A stretch of DNA of 64,000 bases from Massalongia carnosa (lineage: Eukaryota), in NCBI GenBank assembly GCA_965645245.1, contig OZ287073.1, positions 1,612,001 to 1,676,000 on the forward strand, given 5' to 3'. Every line of letters starts with the position of its first letter. The stretch's first letter is position 1. The notes under the pieces were generated by a model. It made no database searches, was not told where the DNA came from, and saw only the letters and a list, made by a program, of their open reading frames with translations. The translations under genes were made by a program, and so were the position numbers. Below, in pieces: positions 6,583-53,067 of this stretch.

Positions 6583-6904
6583 GTAAAAGCTCTTACTTGG
6601 GAGAGTCGGTTTGTACTTTAATGTATTGATAGAGCTTGCATGAATGGTGGCTTATTGTTTGAGACCCTTTCCCCTAATCTACCATTTGCGCCAAATCAAA
6701 TACAGTTAGCACATTAGCTAGCGCTGATCATTGTCAGCCCTATTTGTAGCCTGTTAAGTTCGCACAACAAAATTTTCTTCTACTTATTTCATATATGCAT
6801 CAACTACTCGTAGCAACTTGCAGCAACTCAACTCAATGCCTATCCATATAATTCAGTAAGAACTTTTTGTAAGCCAGCCTATGGATATCTTATTCCCATA
6901 TGTT

Positions 6905-6991
6905 ACAAATGATGAGCTTTCACGAACAATCCAAATCCTATAGCATCATGCAGGAGCATTATTTCTCTCTCTAGAATTACTCTGATATTTG
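6905..6991 (+). ncRNA. Box C/D snoRNA; predicted guides for SSU A (human Am159 equivalent) and LSU G (human Gm4494 equivalent)
   Basis: Box C ATGATGA 6909-6915, box D CTGA 6982-6985, terminal stem CAAA/TTTG. D guide CTCTAGAATTAC (6969-6980) is antisense to SSU GUAAUUCUAGAG. GAACAATCCAA (6924-6934) is antisense to LSU UUGGAUUGUUC, with degenerate D' CCTA. Confidence 0.85.
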
Positions 6992-7144
6992 CCCTCAACG
7001 AGGACTTTGTCATATACTTTGGTTTAAGCTAAGCTAATCAGCTATTATAGCTTCATGGTGCTTCGAGATCCATGTTTTCTTCAAAATGGACAAAAACAAA
7101 AAAAGGTATAACAAAGCTCGCTCCTTGTCTACCATGAATATTTA

Positions 7145-7238
7145 TTACATGATGACTACACGACGTGGAAAGGCATTCCTCATTCCGAATATACGATGTC
7201 GATTTCGTTTCTACAAAGTTTCAGCCTTGTCTGAGTTC
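7145..7238 (+). ncRNA. snR41: Box C/D snoRNA, snR41-like (SSU Gm1126)
   Basis: Box C ATGATGA 7149-7155, D' CCGA 7185-7188, D CTGA 7231-7234. The 14-nt guide AAGTTTCAGCCTTG is antisense to SSU CAAGGCUGAAACUU, and the +5 rule gives G1126 (yeast numbering). Confidence 0.88.
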
Positions 7239-7359
7239 CCAATGAATTCTACTCTTCGCCACAGGTTTCTCTGGACGATGCTCTCAGCTAACGCATCACG
7301 TGTACATAGGTACCAGGCACCCTATGAGACATTTGATAGTACCAATACCTACATCCTAT

Positions 7360-7494
7360 ATTCATGAAGAACCTTGAACGAACGGGCGGACAGACTGCGT
7401 ACTCTTCTCTTGGCACCACCCAATGCTCAGGCGTACAAACCTAGCAGGTGTCAAGTTGTAATATGTACTTGTTGAGAAATCGTCAGCTGATCAT
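7360..7494 (+). ncRNA. snR70: Box C/D snoRNA, snR70-like (SSU Cm1639)
   Basis: Box C ATGAAGA 7364-7370. Guide ACGGGCGG 7382-7389 plus D' CAGA is antisense to CCGCCCGU, giving C1639 by the +5 rule. An extra element GTACAAA (~7433-7439) is antisense to the adjacent UUUGUAC. D CTGA 7487-7490. Confidence 0.82.
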
Positions 7495-7632
7495 CAATGC
7501 TTTGCTTGCAGCCTGGCTTTTCATTGAATTTATCTGCCATAGAAAGTAATCTCTAACTTTGGGATTGTTCATTAGGTAACCCCCATAGATTCTTTCTTGC
7601 GAAAAAACAAACTTTCAAGCAAAGCATCACCT

Positions 7633-7732
7633 TGAAATGATGAACACTATTCACACTGTTTGAACCGGACACCGCCTTGTAAAGAGGGCAAAGTCGGGTG
7701 ATGAACGCACAAACACTGAAAATTCTGATTTA
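7633..7732 (+). ncRNA. snR51: Box C/D snoRNA, snR51-like (LSU Um2729, plus predicted Um2724)
   Basis: C ATGATGA 7637-7643, guide TATTCACACTG 7648-7658 with D' TTGA, C' GTGATGA 7698-7704, guide ACACTGAAAAT 7713-7723 with D CTGA 7725-7728. Both guides are antisense to LSU AUUUUCAGUGUGAAUA. Confidence 0.88.
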
Positions 7733-8647
7733 ATGAGGTATATCCCCCTACAACCTACTTTCCCTCTATATCTTACTAACATAAGGGTGCCAAGCCTGAT
7801 TACCAGATGAGCTTCTTTATACCGTCATAGTCAGAAGACAGCGCAACGGGTTGAAGCCTCGCTGACCAGCTGGTGGTGCGATCTTAGGGGCATTAGCAGT
7901 GGCGGTAGCTTCCCTGATAAACCCTAGGTGAGCTACCTCTACCGTGGCCTTCTCCCACGCTCCTCCGCGCTTTACCTGATGAATCCAAATATTTCGCTGT
8001 GTTCTTTCCGAGATCGATCGCTGAAGAAACTTATATTTCACCTTGGAGAACTGATTTACCTTATATGACCACTCTCTCCATCTACTGAATTACGAGTGAA
8101 ACATTCGACTGACCTTCCTTCATTCAGGTATGAGCTCCATGTGCTCTTTCCGTTCGAAGAAGAACGACTCTGTGCAGGCAGTGAAGGCTTTTTGCTCGAA
8201 ATCGGGGTAGTCCGGGGGGTAGAGTGGTGAGAAAGAACGATACTATTATTAATGTTACAATGCACCTTTACCATGAAAAGTTTGCCTAAGCAGGTGAACC
8301 GTAGGCTCATATACCTAGTTAAGCAAGCTCCCTTTTGCAGGCGTGGCAGGCTCTCTAACCCAAGTGCTAATCGCCATGCTGCCATCACGATGAGGAAATC
8401 CATCTAAATGAAATAATGGTCTCATAAATTTCCTATATCTGTAATGTAGTACCTAGTCCAGTATCTTGGTAAACAAGTTGAAAAGGATAGTGATGGCAGA
8501 TACCAGTCAACCGTGGAAAGTGAGAAGTCACGAAGCGCCTATGCATACTGTGCGCTGAATTAGCCAACGCAGCCCCAATACCTGAGTTCAAGACACGCGC
8601 ATCAAGAGTCTTAAACTTCAACCACCATCTCTTTCAGCCGTCAAGAA

Positions 8648-9491
8648 ATGGCCTCTTCCTATCTTCCTAACCCACATTACACCTCACCCTCCTATGACCC
8701 CTCCACCCCGCCCCCTCCCCCCCCAAAACCGCCCCGCTCCACAGCTACGGCTACGACCGCACCGACAACAACAACAACAACAACAACAGCAACTACAACA
8801 ACTACAACAACTCCCCATAACCAACCTCCCTTTTCCCCTCCACCTCCAACGCCCTCATCGTCATACCTCCAAATCGCCAACGAACTCCCCTCAACCGCCC
8901 CCCCTCCTCCCCCTCCCCCCTCCGCACACTGGCTTCCAGAAATTCTCCATGACAAACCGTGAGCTGCCCCCTCCCCTCAAGAACCAAAACCTCATAGCTT
9001 AACTGATCAACCTCAGAACCTCAACCCTCACCCCCATCCTCTCCTCCCCCTCTCTCCTCTCAGCCCTCTCCCAGACCCACCCCTCCCTAACCCCCTCTCC
9101 CCTCCTCCCCTACCTCACCACAACTATCCACCTAGGGCACCACGTCCAAACCCAACACGCTTACCTCCTTGCACTCCGCCACGCTACCCAGCAGCATCTT
9201 CTCCGCCTCCACGGCCTTGAGCGCGCCTGGCGTGAGCGCCAGAAATGCATGGACGCCGTGCTAGAGCCGTGGAGCGCCAAGGCGCTTTACCGCCGCCTTG
9301 TGGTCGCGGAGAGGGAGGCTGAAGAGCTGAGCAAGGGGCTGGAGGAGAGTTTCTTGGGTGGGGACGGTAGGGCCGGGGAGAGAGAGGTGGGGGATTTTGT
9401 GAGGAGGTTTAGGGAGGCGAGAACAGTGGTGGGGAGGAGGGGGGAGGAGAGGGCTCGGTGGGATGAGGGGAGGGTAGGGGGGTGGCGATAG
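8648..9491 (+). CDS. VPS37: ESCRT-I subunit Vps37-like (Mod_r domain), intron 8959-9016
   Basis: Pro/Thr-rich N-terminus. A GTGAGC...CTGAT...CAG intron restores the frame into the C-terminus LEPWSAKALY...EESFL...FVRRFREAR...WDEGRVGGWR. Confidence 0.8.
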
Positions 9492-12400
9492 CGAGGTTTA
9501 GGTCTGAGGGTTCGATGAACGGGGTTGAAGAGTACATCTTTACGGAAGCCCTTTGAATTGTCTACAAGCATATCGCGACCATTTCCCTAAGGAGAATCTT
9601 CGTGGTCAAACCACACGTCACGTCTCACAACCCACAACCTAGAGTATCCAACGTATGACTCTGACCAACCGAACGAGAAAGTTGTGTTGTTTTGAAATCC
9701 TTCCCCACATGCAGATCTGTCTATGTAGGGACGAAGTAGAGCTATAAAGCGCTCGAACCATTTTCCATTTCGGGACTAGTTAAGCTAACTAGAGGGGGAC
9801 GGGGAAAAGGAATGGCCAACTTTGAGGCAAAGCTTGAGCGAACTATGTGTGCCACAAAGCATCCTCTTACGCTCGGTTTTGTTGGGAAGAGAGGAGATTA
9901 GAGAGAAGAGGACATTGACGACGCGCTCTGATGGTGGCAAGCTGAGTAGGTACTCCGAAAGAACCAAATTACCATTCCACCATTGGACCAGCGCCCATAA
10001 GAGTCGAACCTATTCAGTGATAGAGTTGAACTAAATGCTCACGCCTCGTATAATGCAGTTTGTACAGAGCACCGAGTACTGTGTACTTGGTCGGGTGGTC
10101 GGCCGAATTTCCACGCTGCCCGGTATGCCTCGAGAACCTTGCAAAGCATTGATAGGCTAGCGTTGCTATTATTGAAACAATCAATATGGGAAGACTCTCC
10201 ATCAAGGCGTTTACATAGGTGACTAACGTTGTATCGAGAACGATTTGTAGTCTACGGAGTATAGCTTTAGTAACCGGAAGCGGACTTATCACTTTGCAAG
10301 ACGACATGAGTGGTAAAGGAGGCAAGGCATGCGATGGAAGCACGCAAGCACGTCCTGTTCCTGTGCACAAGGATTCCACATGGCTTCCCTGGTCCCGTTT
10401 CCCATTTGATACACGGGCCAAAAGGAACTTGCTAATGCAGGTGTCATCTAGCTCCCGATTCCCAGGAAGTTTGATCGCCCTCGCTCCAAATTGACCCCTT
10501 CATCCGAAAAAGCGCGCAAATAACTAAGCCATTTCCTTTTCACTTTAACCAGACGGACGGGCGCAAAGAACATGAAGCGAAAAGGTAAAATATGAGTGCT
10601 TCCGAAGATCTTCTCGTTTTGGACTTTGCAAAACTTTGGATACTCACAGAGAATAGGCAACATCGTGAGTCAGAGAACGCAAAACTCTAAAGTCTGTTGA
10701 CTTGACTAGCGATTTCTTAACGGATCAAGCAAGGAATAGATTCTCGTCCACGAGGTTCTGCAAAACCGTCGAAACCAAAAAGCGACATAATTCCCCGATC
10801 AAGATACGATAAGAAGAAAATCGCAATTGATGCGCAATCAATGCGCAGCTCATTACGGCGCATTGCATTTCTTCAGAAATGCAATGCCGAACATGACCTT
10901 ATCATCCCCAAATGGCAAAATCTCAATGCATGGAAAAAGCAAACGGCATCGTACGCACGTGTGGCCGATTATTGACATGATTGCATTCATGGTCCCATTC
11001 CAGGTTCAATGGATGGCGCGTCGAATGAGTCTATTATTGTATCAATAGCATGATACAGAATGAGGAACGCCTTACCCGCTCGCGAAGATTGCGGGCCAAA
11101 TGACTGGAGGCTGATGCTGCTGGTGGTCCTTCGCTGAACGAGTGAGGAACGTCACTTTGATATGCCTTACCTTTTCGGTAGCCTTCTTGTGAACCCTCAA
11201 CAGCTACTCTGTACATGGTGCAGGAGTTAGCTGTTTGGTCCAAGGCTGATTTCGCGAGGAACATTAACTACTTTATTAGCATAGATTCAAAATAGGCATT
11301 GCGCTGTCCAAGTCCCGAGTGGTTGTCTGACATGCGGTTGGGGGTTGAACATGAGGGAGTGTGGTCACAACAAGCCTAACCAGATGACGAAGATGGTGAA
11401 CCTATTCTCTCCCTAGGCTAGAGTTGTATGGATGGTGTCGGATAGCCATAGAGCCAAGATCTGTATTTACGCAAGAGAACGGGCGATGCTTGGTCTTTGC
11501 CTCTTGTCTTTTCGCTGCATGACAGATTTGGGATTTAGGGCTGTTCTCTCAACCTCATAATCCCCGTGATCGTCGTGATCTCCAATGCCTTTGGCGTAAA
11601 TCCTGCCGCTCCGTTGCTGCACGGTGTAAACGTGCTGCAACGACCACGAATGAGAGTTAGGGGGAAAAGGGTCTATTTAGTTCCATTCAAGGGGGGAAGG
11701 GAGTCGCGGTGCCGGCCAATCAGTTCGTCCTTCTCGCTCAACTCATCACACCACCTTATGCACCTTCTCCCATCCACACACCCTCCCAGTGTCCATCTTT
11801 AGAATCTCTCTTCAACATTAAGATCACTTGCAGAAGAGATAAACGTTGGAGGGAACAGAATCTTGTATCGTTCTCCCCCCAATTCCGGCCCGCCACCCAT
11901 CTTCCCAAACCCTTCTGCAGCAGATTCCGCAAGAATATTAACAACAGTGAGAAGGGGCCAGCAGCGAGTGGTACAAGAAGTAACAACAACAACACAATAA
12001 CAGTCATCTCGTTTGGCATTTACGCTTGCTACGTGACCACCGTGCCAATTTACTTTATTAATAACATTATGTTGTTTTCTCTCATCATTAACTAAAGCTC
12101 GAGCATACGCCGTAGGTTCTCTAGTTCACCCGGACCTGCTTGGGTGTCCTGGGGGCTTGATCTACATGTAGCGAGAAAAAGAAACGAGAGGTCTCGGCTG
12201 CGCATCAACTCTCCATCGAGGGGTGTTTCATCCTCAGACAGGGACGCTGCAAAAAACCTCACTTTGCCTTCTGCTCCATATCACCCATCCATCACTTCCA
12301 CCATCTGTCTTCTCATCGGGGGTATTGCTTATCTTGCACCTCTCCGAATTAGTCGATCAGACTAGGTCTGGTTCTGGATTTGGATCAATAAACATTGGTA

Positions 12401-33536: not shown

Positions 33537-33645
33537 TGCGAGCTGAGAGGTTCGAACTCTCGCATCTTTCGATAATAGTGTGAACATATCAGACCTCTGT
33601 CCGATAACTTAAAACTACCGCCTTAGACCACTCGGCCAAACTCGC
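33537..33645 (-). tRNA. tRNA-Leu(UAA) with a 27-nt intron at position 37/38
   Basis: Acceptor stem GCGAGTT/AGCTCGC+A, D arm GCCGAGTGGTCTAAGGC, anticodon arm GTAGT-TTTAAG[intron]C-ACTAT, long variable arm, and T arm GAGAGTTCGAACCTCTC. Confidence 0.95.
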
Positions 33646-51436: not shown

Positions 51437-53067
51437 ATGCCTCCCAAGAAACAGGTTGAAGAGAAGAAGATACTGCTCGGCAGGCCTGGGAACTCGCTAA
51501 AAAGGTAGGAGAACTTCTGGGCCTTAAACCTACCGAAATAGGACTGTGCTGACCGGGTTCCTCATCAGCGGTATCGTATGTAGAAGGCCCCATCTCGGCT
51601 TCTAGATTTATAGGCTTGTGCTGACCGAACACAACTGTGAAATAGGTTGGACTGGCAAATGTTGGAAAATCAACATTATTCCAAGCCATCACCAAATGCT
51701 CGCTAGGAAATCCAGCTGTATGATAACTCTAGAGCGTTTTGGGAATTTTTATTCTTAACAGTTACTTAATAGAACTTCCCATTCGCTACAATCGAACCCG
51801 AAGAAGCCCGAGTCATTGTACCAGACGTAAGGTATGACTGGTTGTGCGAGCACTACAAGCCTAAATCGCGAGTTCCGGCCAATCTCACGGTCTATGATAT
51901 AGCTGGCCTGACTCGAGGAGCATCTACCGGAGCTGGGCTTGGTAATGCTTTCTTATCGCATATTCGCGCCGTCGATGCTATCTTCCAGGTTGTCCGTTGC
52001 TTCGACGATGCAGAGATTATCCACGTTGAAGGAGATGTTGATCCTGTCAGGGACCTCACAATCATCAGCGAGGAGCTTCGAATCAAAGATATCGAGTTCG
52101 TGGAGAAAGCCTTGGAAAACCTGAATAAGCAGACTCGGCGAGGCGGGCAAAGCCTGGAGATGAAAAAGCTGAAGGAGGAGGAAGCCACGGTGGAGAAGAT
52201 TCTTGCTTGGCTTAAAGATGGTAAGGACGTGAGAAAGGAAAATTGGACCTCAAAAGAAGTAGGTATACTAGGTTCCGTTTTCTTTTATCTTTGCTTTAAG
52301 ATGATGAACAAGAGCTACAAAGCTCGATATAATCCCAGCTCGTTGAATGGCTCAAACAAACAACGCAGAGACCGTCGTGAGATGAAATTTATGTCTGATC
52401 TATTAGTCATTTGTTTTATTTTTTACCTATACTAGTTATTGGTCAAGTCTGATGGAGGCTGCTAGGTCGAGGTGATAAACCCGTTGTTTCTTCTCACTGC
52501 CAAGCCAGTTGTATACCTTGTCAACCTTAGCGAGAAGGATTACATACGCCAAAAGAACAAGCATCTTCCCAAGATCGCTGAATGGGTCAAGGAGCACGCC
52601 GCTGGGGACCCTATCATTCCGCTTTCTGTTTCCTTCGAAGAACGACTTACAAGGTTTGGGACAGAGCCTGAGGCTGAAGAGGAGTGCAAAAAGCTCGGAA
52701 CGAAATCCGCCCTTCCGAAAATCATTGTAACAATGAGGCAGATGCTAAATTTAGGAAGCTTCTTCACCACAGGTGCGGATGAAGTCCGTCAGTGGACCAT
52801 AAGAAAGGGTACCAAGGCTCCGCAGGCCGCCGGCGTAATCCACGGAGGTACAGTTATAGATTTTATATGCTGTGCTAAAGCTGATGTTAGTGAGCAGATT
52901 TTGAAAAGACTTTCATCCAATGTATTGTATACAACTTCAACGTTTTGAAAGAGCTTGGAGATGAGGCAGCTATCAAGGCGGCTGGGAAGGTGTTGACGAA
53001 AGGAAAGGATTATGTAGTCGAAGATGGAGACATTATTCTAATCAAGGCTGGAGCGGCGAAGTCATGA
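51437..53067 (+). CDS. OLA1: Obg-like ATPase Ola1/YchF, multi-exon with a 7-nt microexon
   Basis: LLGRPGNSLKS|GI|VGLANVGKST, NFPFATIEP, DIAGL, GLGNAFLSHIR, and a TGS domain (APQAAGVIH, GKDYVVEDGDI). Confidence 0.97.
52297..52402 (+). ncRNA. snR69: Intronic box C/D snoRNA, snR69-like (LSU Cm2948)
   Basis: Lies in the 207-nt OLA1 intron 52259-52465. C ATGATGA 52301-52307; guide TAATCCCAGCTC 52330-52341 with D' TTGA is antisense (1 mismatch) to LSU GAGCUGGGUUUA; D CTGA 52395-52398 is ~50 nt before the branch point. Confidence 0.85.

Follow-up and report, generated by a model that had tools for sequence, protein, structure and literature searches.

The window analysed here, a stretch of DNA 64,000 nucleotides long, includes a portion of the non-coding gene that hosts the fungal snoRNA cluster III (snR41-snR70-snR51), in the form typical of filamentous ascomycetes. 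Each intron contains one box C/D snoRNA, two interior exons have been lost, and at both of these places an intron's acceptor directly adjoins the donor of the following intron. A host gene with two such zero-length exons is most likely processed by stepwise, 5'-to-3' (recursive) splicing.

Both the zero-length-exon architecture and the stepwise splicing are already in print for this cluster, in the account of cluster III by Luo et al. (2013, PMC3596301), and because of that publication our finding is a confirmation and not a discovery. Our additions are exact coordinates, counts of how well the GT and the exon end are conserved, and a terminal stem that covaries. We also offer a comparative argument that the donors are truly used, which draws on the GT, the A at +3, and the exon end, with ordinary acceptors as controls. 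In addition, we correct the position at which the third snoRNA intron ends (~7887, not 7785). An exon of zero length does not fit the usual picture of a gene and escapes gene finders as well as RNA-seq junction callers. The right annotation of the host gene, and of the interrupted snR51 within it, depends on knowing this architecture.

Identity and layout of the locus

Rfam was run at the gathering threshold and then permissively, and the reach of its snR70 model was judged at E<=10. The Afu_455 model matches positions 7145-7236 with 70.7 bits (gathering score 48), and its 3' guide and box D are identical to those of the snR41 model, which makes the first snoRNA a snR41 orthologue. Rfam also calls snR41 in the yeast-like loci that were retrieved with the window's snR41 guide. 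The second snoRNA is a snR70 orthologue: its box C is followed by the ACGGGCGGACA guide, which is common to two yeast-like loci (L023 and L080) where Rfam calls snR70 with 187.8 and 58.3 bits, respectively. The Rfam snR70 model itself gave no match to the window at E<=10, and none in a 631-base search. The third snoRNA is snR51-like and is interrupted by an intron without a snoRNA between its antisense element and box D. In the permissive search, 7633-7744 aligned below threshold to snR51 (29 bits) and to snR67 (26.4 bits), and the snR51 alignment spans both guides. Rfam finds the same order, snR41-snR70-snR51, in yeast-like loci too. After each snoRNA, a YTRAY branch motif lies 47-66 nt beyond box D, and an AG follows 15-22 nt later.

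In the window sequence the cluster is framed by one extra snoRNA intron on either side. The downstream one carries Afu_294 (7972-8057; 73 bits against a gathering score of 43). The upstream one carries a conserved, unnamed box C/D snoRNA at 6905-6990 that had no Rfam match, including in the 631-base search. Its two antisense stretches recur upstream of snR41 in up to 57 (6921-6934) and 36 (6969-6985) of the 71 related loci listed. Judged by its position, intron A would be the counterpart of what Luo et al. call 'U45 intron A'. Our identification of the host gene therefore rests on the Rfam matches, the snR70 guide common to L023 and L080, and the extra box C/D unit at 6905-6990. The coordinates of all features are collected in Table 1.

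Table 1. Features of the cluster III host gene, in window coordinates (a slash in sequence motifs marks a splice junction here and in the text)
Feature	Position	Strand	Details
Intron A	6856-7041	+	donor GTAAGA 6856; acceptor CAG 7039-7041, alternative TAG 7048-7050
Intron A snoRNA	~6905-6990	+	box C 6909-6915; box D 6982-6985; no name
Exon 2, host transcript	7042-7105	+	ends AAAAAG; start uncertain, 7042 or 7051
Intron I (204 nt)	7106-7309	+	donor GTATAA; snR41/Afu_455 7145-7236
Intron I, 3' signals		+	CTAAC 7288-7292, branch A 7291; acceptor TAG 7307-7309
Junction 1	7309-7310	+	acceptor G adjoins donor G; zero-length exon
Intron II (266 nt)	7310-7575	+	donor GTACCA; snR70-like snoRNA ~7360-7494
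Intron II, snoRNA boxes		+	box C ATGAAGA 7364-7370; box D 7487-7490
Intron II, 3' signals		+	CTAAC 7553-7557, branch A 7556; acceptor TAG 7573-7575
Junction 2	7575-7576	+	acceptor G adjoins donor G; zero-length exon
Intron III (312 nt)	7576-7887	+	donor GTAACC; snR51-like unit ~7621-7815
snR51-like snoRNA, 5' part	7637-7737	+	box C 7637-7643; 25S guide TTCACACTGT; box C' ~7698-7704
snR67-type guide	ends at internal CTGA 7725-7728	+	last 19 model positions identical to Rfam snR67
18S-A100-type guide CTGATTTAATGAG	7725-7737	+	shares its first four bases (CTGA) with the internal CTGA
Intron B (57 nt)	7738-7794	+	donor GTATAT; TACTAAC 7774-7780, branch A 7779; acceptor AAG 7792-7794
Intron III, 3' signals		+	CTGAC 7862-7866, branch A 7865; probable acceptor TAG 7885-7887
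Exon 3 (40 nt)	7888-7927	+	between the inferred acceptor 7887 and donor GTGAGC 7928
Intron C (200 nt)	7928-8127	+	donor GTGAGC; Afu_294 7972-8057
Intron C, 3' signals		+	CTGAC 8109-8113; acceptor CAG 8125-8127

Elsewhere in the window there is a tRNA match of 109 nt (33537-33645, minus strand), long enough for an intron, and a further box C/D snoRNA, Afu_304 (52297-52401, plus strand; 69.9 bits). The neighbouring open reading frame at 8640-9490 (plus strand) starts in very C/A-rich low-complexity DNA with proline/threonine-type repeats and ACA repeats (~8754-8816). Contigs of four sequencing runs aligned to the window, with this low-complexity stretch skipped as repetitive, were DNA-like, identical to it, and free of spliced joints. 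A low-depth contig in run X4 has the reverse complement of ~9660-9690 joined to sequence from 7067 onward, either because that sample is rearranged here or because the contig is a chimera.

The abutting junctions

The two junctions had been described in an earlier note made from the sequence alone, and every position that it gave for them was borne out. After the GCTAAC at 7287, the first AG is at 7308-7309 and GTACCA begins directly at 7310, as confirmed both by reading the sequence and by a scripted check. After the CTAAC at 7553-7557, the first AG is at 7574-7575 and GTAACC begins directly at 7576. The AG/GT lies 18-19 nt past CTAAC in both cases. The note had also pointed to a second GTACCA at 7339, which is indeed present; together with 7310 it accounts for all GTs in 7310-7370. 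At junction 2 the GT at 7576 is, as claimed, the sole one in 7576-7645 (i.e. before the next box C).

The upstream donor, GTATAA, begins at 7106 and is preceded by the exon end AAAAAG. At the level of sequence, this exon end (7105) would regenerate AAG/GTA at each step. Branch site, pyrimidine-AG acceptor, and GT donor are juxtaposed at both junctions, as recursive splicing at zero-length exons requires. Across the whole window, GT follows AG in 257 of 4157 cases (6.2%).

We also considered a GC donor between 7576 and box C. GC occurs there at 7599, 7619, and 7624, none of them in a donor-like context. A third AG/GT (CAG/GTATGA) is found at 8126-8129, at the acceptor of the Afu_294 intron. As a candidate for a third conserved zero-length exon (8127/8128) it was rejected: the GT is not conserved, being present in 6 of the 28 related loci listed, and a permissive Rfam search found no snoRNA match downstream of it. 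This AG/GT is probably due to chance or lineage-specific.

Conservation across related loci

Metagenome contigs were scanned with the snR41 guide and box D, which gave at least 113 loci, 80 of them with long flanks. Counting the window, the set comprised 114 sequences; the snR70 guide is present within 330 nt in 85, and 60 of these contain the snR51 guide as well. The count for junction 1 left out the 29 of 114 that lack the snR70 guide marker, and the count for junction 2 left out 54 sequences. Those 29 are intron-less yeast-type loci, loci that are too short, a different eukaryotic group, chance hits, and a few loci with a variant guide that still have the branch motif and AG/GT (e.g. the yeast-like L002).

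Junction 1 has AG/GT in 65 of the 67 distinct snR41-snR70 spacers listed, window included, and a YTRAY motif lies upstream in 64 of those 65. The expectations from mononucleotide shuffles are 0.186 for AG/GT and 0.064 with YTRAY upstream. Junction 2 has AG/GT in 47 of the 49 distinct snR70-snR51 spacers listed, compared to 0.277 in mononucleotide shuffles. One of the exceptions at junction 2 (L012 and L043) has an apparent real exon of ~45 nt. The other (L013 and L035) has AG/GC, which is the usual tolerated donor variant, and its close relative L029 has AG/GT. Among the matches listed, the next commonest AGNN word reaches at most 37 of 67 spacers at junction 1 and 26 of 49 at junction 2. Many of the related loci are close kin, the 67 and 49 spacers falling into 43 and 16 clusters at 70% identity, so these counts do not represent independent events. 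The AG/GT pattern is more than chance, and it has been kept while the sequence around it diverged among related loci.

The earlier note had proposed aligning related loci for a conserved YAG/GTA, and the alignment upheld it. At junction 1, position -3 is C or T in 64/64 of the matches listed and position +3 is A in 64/64. No other GT occurs before the next box C in 33/64 of the matches listed at junction 1 and 17/40 at junction 2, and for this reason these spacers offer no GT-AG alternative. Ordinary acceptors of the same genes served as controls and, among the matches listed, are followed by GT in 6/28 cases (intron C) and 12/34 (intron III); the same crude rule applied to junction 1 finds GT after the acceptor in 64/81 of the matches listed. 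Taken together, the conservation of AG/GT relative to shuffles and the ordinary-acceptor controls support real donors at zero-length exons.

In the 12 of 34 related loci listed in which GT follows the intron III acceptor (e.g. L024, L005, and L037, though not the window), it is usually GTA, and a canonical GTAAGT-like donor lies 40-60 nt beyond that acceptor. In these loci the GT may permit the short exon upstream of the Afu_294 intron to be skipped.

The exon end before intron I is A-rich, with A at -3 in 60, at -4 in 55, and at -5 in 52 of the 69 donors listed. This end is conserved as AAAAG, and the rest of the exon is not alignable by eye. Beyond GTA, the abutting donors are weak. Among the matches listed, G at +5 is found in 13/64 at junction 1 and 15/40 at junction 2, compared to 54/65 at the first donor, and the window's GTACCA and GTAACC are both without it. 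Donors conserved only as GTA, combined with a conserved AAAAG, suggest that the same exon end would be presented to each GTA in turn.

The interrupted snR51-like snoRNA and the end of intron III

The earlier note had ended the third intron at 7785, with its branch point at 7779. Neither assignment held up: the AG at 7784-7785 is only 6 nt from the branch A, and the acceptor conserved for this branch point in related loci is the AG at 7793-7794. The TACTAAC at 7774-7780 is instead part of a small intron of 57 nt (intron B) that lies within the snR51-like snoRNA, and not of the end of intron III. Removing intron B joins the 18S guide to C plus box D (CTGA 7796-7799), and the product of splicing out 7738-7794 is GAGCCTGA. 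Among the 50 distinct related sequences listed, 34 have the form G/GT...AG/CCTGA and one has G/GC. The intron has slid by 3 nt with the same spliced product in two, GAGCCTGA is uninterrupted in eight, and three have the yeast form.

Several of the related loci show individual variants. L021 and L022 have the nested intron shifted by 3 nt (AAT/GTAAG ... AG/GAGCCTGA) with the spliced sequence unchanged, which makes them a clear instance of intron sliding. At intron B, L065 has a GC donor, and L055 contains an extra intron-like insertion of ~150 nt (GTGAGT ... CTAAC ... CAG) between the snR67-type and 18S guides.

The 15 nt before box C of the snR51-like snoRNA pair with the 16 nt after the box D at 7796-7799, and compensatory changes occur between loci. 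For 28 distinct pairs from the loci listed, the mean duplex energy of this terminal stem is -9.93, compared to -5.57 (sd 0.48) when permuted, and 0/300 permutations reach the real value. Since the covarying stem continues beyond 7799, the snoRNA extends past 7785 and spans ~7621-7815. Because the snoRNA with its nested intron reaches ~7815, the end of intron III has to lie downstream of it, most likely at the TAG at 7885-7887, located 22 nt after the branch A of the CTGAC at 7862-7866, judging from the branch motif, the spacing, and the same layout in related loci. The AG at 7868-7869 is just 4 nt from that branch A (7865).

Intron B is separated by 162 nt from the upstream donor of intron III and by 68 nt from the downstream branch motif of that intron. 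We considered whether the arrangement is a stwintron, which the text of PMC8469720 used here describes as an internal intron interrupting the donor, branch element, or acceptor of an external intron. Intron B interrupts the snoRNA and not a splice signal of intron III, and we rejected this classification.

Three guide-like elements lie within 7698-7799 of the snR51-like snoRNA. In yeast, snR51 guides 18S-Am100 and 25S-U2729, according to the section of PMC3938493 that covers it. The snR51-like gene could possibly yield two isoforms or form two alternative box C/D pairings. One tentative and rather doubtful hypothesis is that the gene encodes two alternative snoRNPs from one box C, with GTA-only donors and AAAAG imposing a 5'-to-3' order. 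In one form, the internal CTGA (7725-7728) would serve the immediately preceding snR67-type 25S guide as its box D. In the other, the same CTGA would be the start of the 18S-A100 guide, and this guide would gain its own box D (7796-7799) only by splicing of intron B. If this were true, splicing of a 57-nt intron within a snoRNA would decide which rRNA site is methylated. The part of Liu et al. (2009, PMC2780460) on cluster III of N. crassa lists a U45 homologue, a snR41 homologue, and a 76-nt snR51 homologue that is called exon-encoded. The 76-nt length of this cloned snR51 homologue would fit the short form. The overlapping-guide arrangement may be the part of this locus that still holds something new.

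Proposed processing and alternative explanations

The analysis establishes the signals, their conservation, and the spliced product of the nested intron; from these we infer the order of splicing, that 7310 and 7576 serve as donors in vivo, and that intron III ends at 7887. Exon 2 (...AAAAAG, 7105) would first be spliced from its donor at 7106 to the acceptor at 7309, releasing the snR41 lariat. The ligated ...AAAAAG/GTACCA would form a new donor for splicing to 7575, with release of the snR70 lariat, and ...AAAAAG/GTAACC would in turn be spliced to ~7887, releasing the snR51 lariat. Debranching and exonuclease trimming would then free each snoRNA. The snR51-like snoRNA would further need removal of the nested intron at 7738-7794, which would bring its 18S guide to box D.

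The earlier note had likewise proposed that each snoRNA gets its own lariat through stepwise splicing. The conserved YAG/GTA, the conserved exon end, and the published ESTs and spliceosome profiling speak for that proposal, which would need to be amended in the end of its third intron: in place of the junction 7105^7786, the predicted ones would be about 7105^7888 and, for intron B, 7737^7795. Its further suggestion, that the locus is an intermediate toward the intron-less yeast polycistron, does not agree with a zero-exon state that is widespread and stable across very divergent loci. From that distribution, the state seems to be a long-standing architecture and not a transitional stage.

In the portion of Luo et al. 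(2013, PMC3596301) devoted to cluster III, 42 ESTs are reported: intron I had been removed in 18, introns I and II in 14, and all three in 10, and none of the ESTs pointed to a different order. The authors propose either stepwise 5'-to-3' splicing or one donor used with three acceptors, and they state that spliced products cannot tell the two apart (PMC3596301). In the latter case the single donor at 7106 would pair alternatively with the acceptors at 7309, 7575, and ~7887, the GTs after the first two would be unused, and lariats holding several snoRNAs would be cut by other nucleases. We consider this unlikely. It predicts the same ESTs (PMC3596301), and the abutting donors mostly do without the +5 G that the majority of first donors have. 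However, it gives no reason for GT to be kept in 65/67 and 47/49 spacers and A at +3 in 64/64 (matches listed), when ordinary acceptors of the same genes have GT in only 6/28 and 12/34 (matches listed). The sole loss of GT at junction 2 with the exon still absent, among the matches listed, is a change to GC. In addition, an internal zero-length exon has direct evidence in a S. pombe snoRNA host, in the part of that preprint cited here (bioRxiv 10.1101/226894). The comparative data favour recursion over one donor with several acceptors, a choice left open in the 2013 paper.

Junction 1 would not be zero-length if the donor were the GTACCA at 7339, leaving a 29-nt micro-exon (7310-7338). This hexamer is the same as at 7310 and is the only other GT before box C, but it is not conserved, and 33/64 of the related spacers listed have no second GT. 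It is also preceded by TA rather than AG, and its distance to box C is 25 nt, compared to 33-69 nt for the conserved junction (43 parsed spacers, matches listed). A micro-exon is accordingly improbable, although 7339 could be a minor alternative donor. The processing model of the earlier note, with a third lariat 7576-7785, branch point 7779, and junction 7105^7786, has in its favour a perfect branch motif (TACTAAC 7774-7780) and the fact that 7784-7785 is the first AG after it. Set against this are the 6 nt between AG and branch A, the conserved partner AG/CCTGA at 7794/7795, and the donor GTATAT at 7738 right after the 18S guide. Moreover, splicing of 7738-7794 rebuilds a GAGCCTGA that is uninterrupted in 8 distinct loci listed, and the covarying stem pairs the box C flank with sequence after 7799. 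We regard that model as very improbable. Least credible to us is a yeast-type polycistron, in which the snoRNAs would be cut by endonuclease from an unspliced transcript and the splice-like motifs would be relics. The yeast-like L023 and L080 do hold the same three snoRNAs, and by eye their spacers are without a branch motif followed by AG/GT. In the window, though, branch motif, YAG, and GTA stand between all snoRNAs, where an intron-less polycistron would have no splice signals. ESTs of related fungi show the introns removed, in the cluster III data of PMC3596301. Unlike relics, these motifs are conserved across highly diverged spacers.

Comparison with known systems

In metazoan ratchet-point recursive splicing (of the Drosophila Ubx type), an acceptor likewise sits directly beside a donor, which is restored once the upstream exon has been ligated. 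Those sites, with their strong GTAAGT donors, divide introns of great length, whereas the introns here are 200-310 nt long, each segment delivers a snoRNA, and conservation of the donors stops at GTA.

A closer parallel among fungi is the zero-length exon in S. pombe SPNCRNA.445, the snoRNA61 host, mapped by spliceosome profiling (Chen et al., bioRxiv 10.1101/226894). As described in the relevant part of that preprint, within an intron of the snoRNA host an acceptor likewise adjoins a donor, and relatives have conserved this layout. It belongs to another cluster and another lineage, and its internal cleavage was mapped directly, whereas the present locus is read from sequence.

Nested and recursive splicing are also described in snoRNA clusters of the Candida clade (Donovan et al. 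2016, PMC5033589), and the passages on these clusters refer to D. hansenii, in which a zero-length exon separates snR41 from snR70. At the position of this exon, the yeast-like L002 shows TACTAAC...AAAG/GTATGT. In the same passages, polycistrons of the Candida clade, D. hansenii, and Y. lipolytica likewise have zero- or one-base exons, and the upstream exon restores the donor (PMC5033589; Mitrovich et al. 2010, cited there). Some introns in those yeasts overlap ('negative' exons) and share a single G (PMC5033589), whereas the exons here are cleanly zero-length, and the present cluster has an extra nested intron relative to what is described for them. The S. cerevisiae SNR41-SNR70-SNR51 polycistron (cluster 3) has orthologous snoRNAs in the same order and, in the account given in PMC3938493, is without introns; its snR51 is uninterrupted, of the CTGATTTAATGACTCTGA type.

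The closest match is cluster III as described by Luo et al. (2013, PMC3596301), whose 'intron-intron-intron' structure comes with EST support. The part of that paper on cluster III reports both interior exons absent in all Euascomycetes examined there. It also describes inserted U45 and U55 snoRNA introns and an 'intron B' without a snoRNA between the snR51 antisense element and box D (PMC3596301). The two loci are alike in their snoRNAs, the order of these, the two missing interior exons, the extra snoRNA introns on both sides, and the intron inside snR51. Compared with that description, nothing essential is different, and the present locus is another instance of the same architecture.
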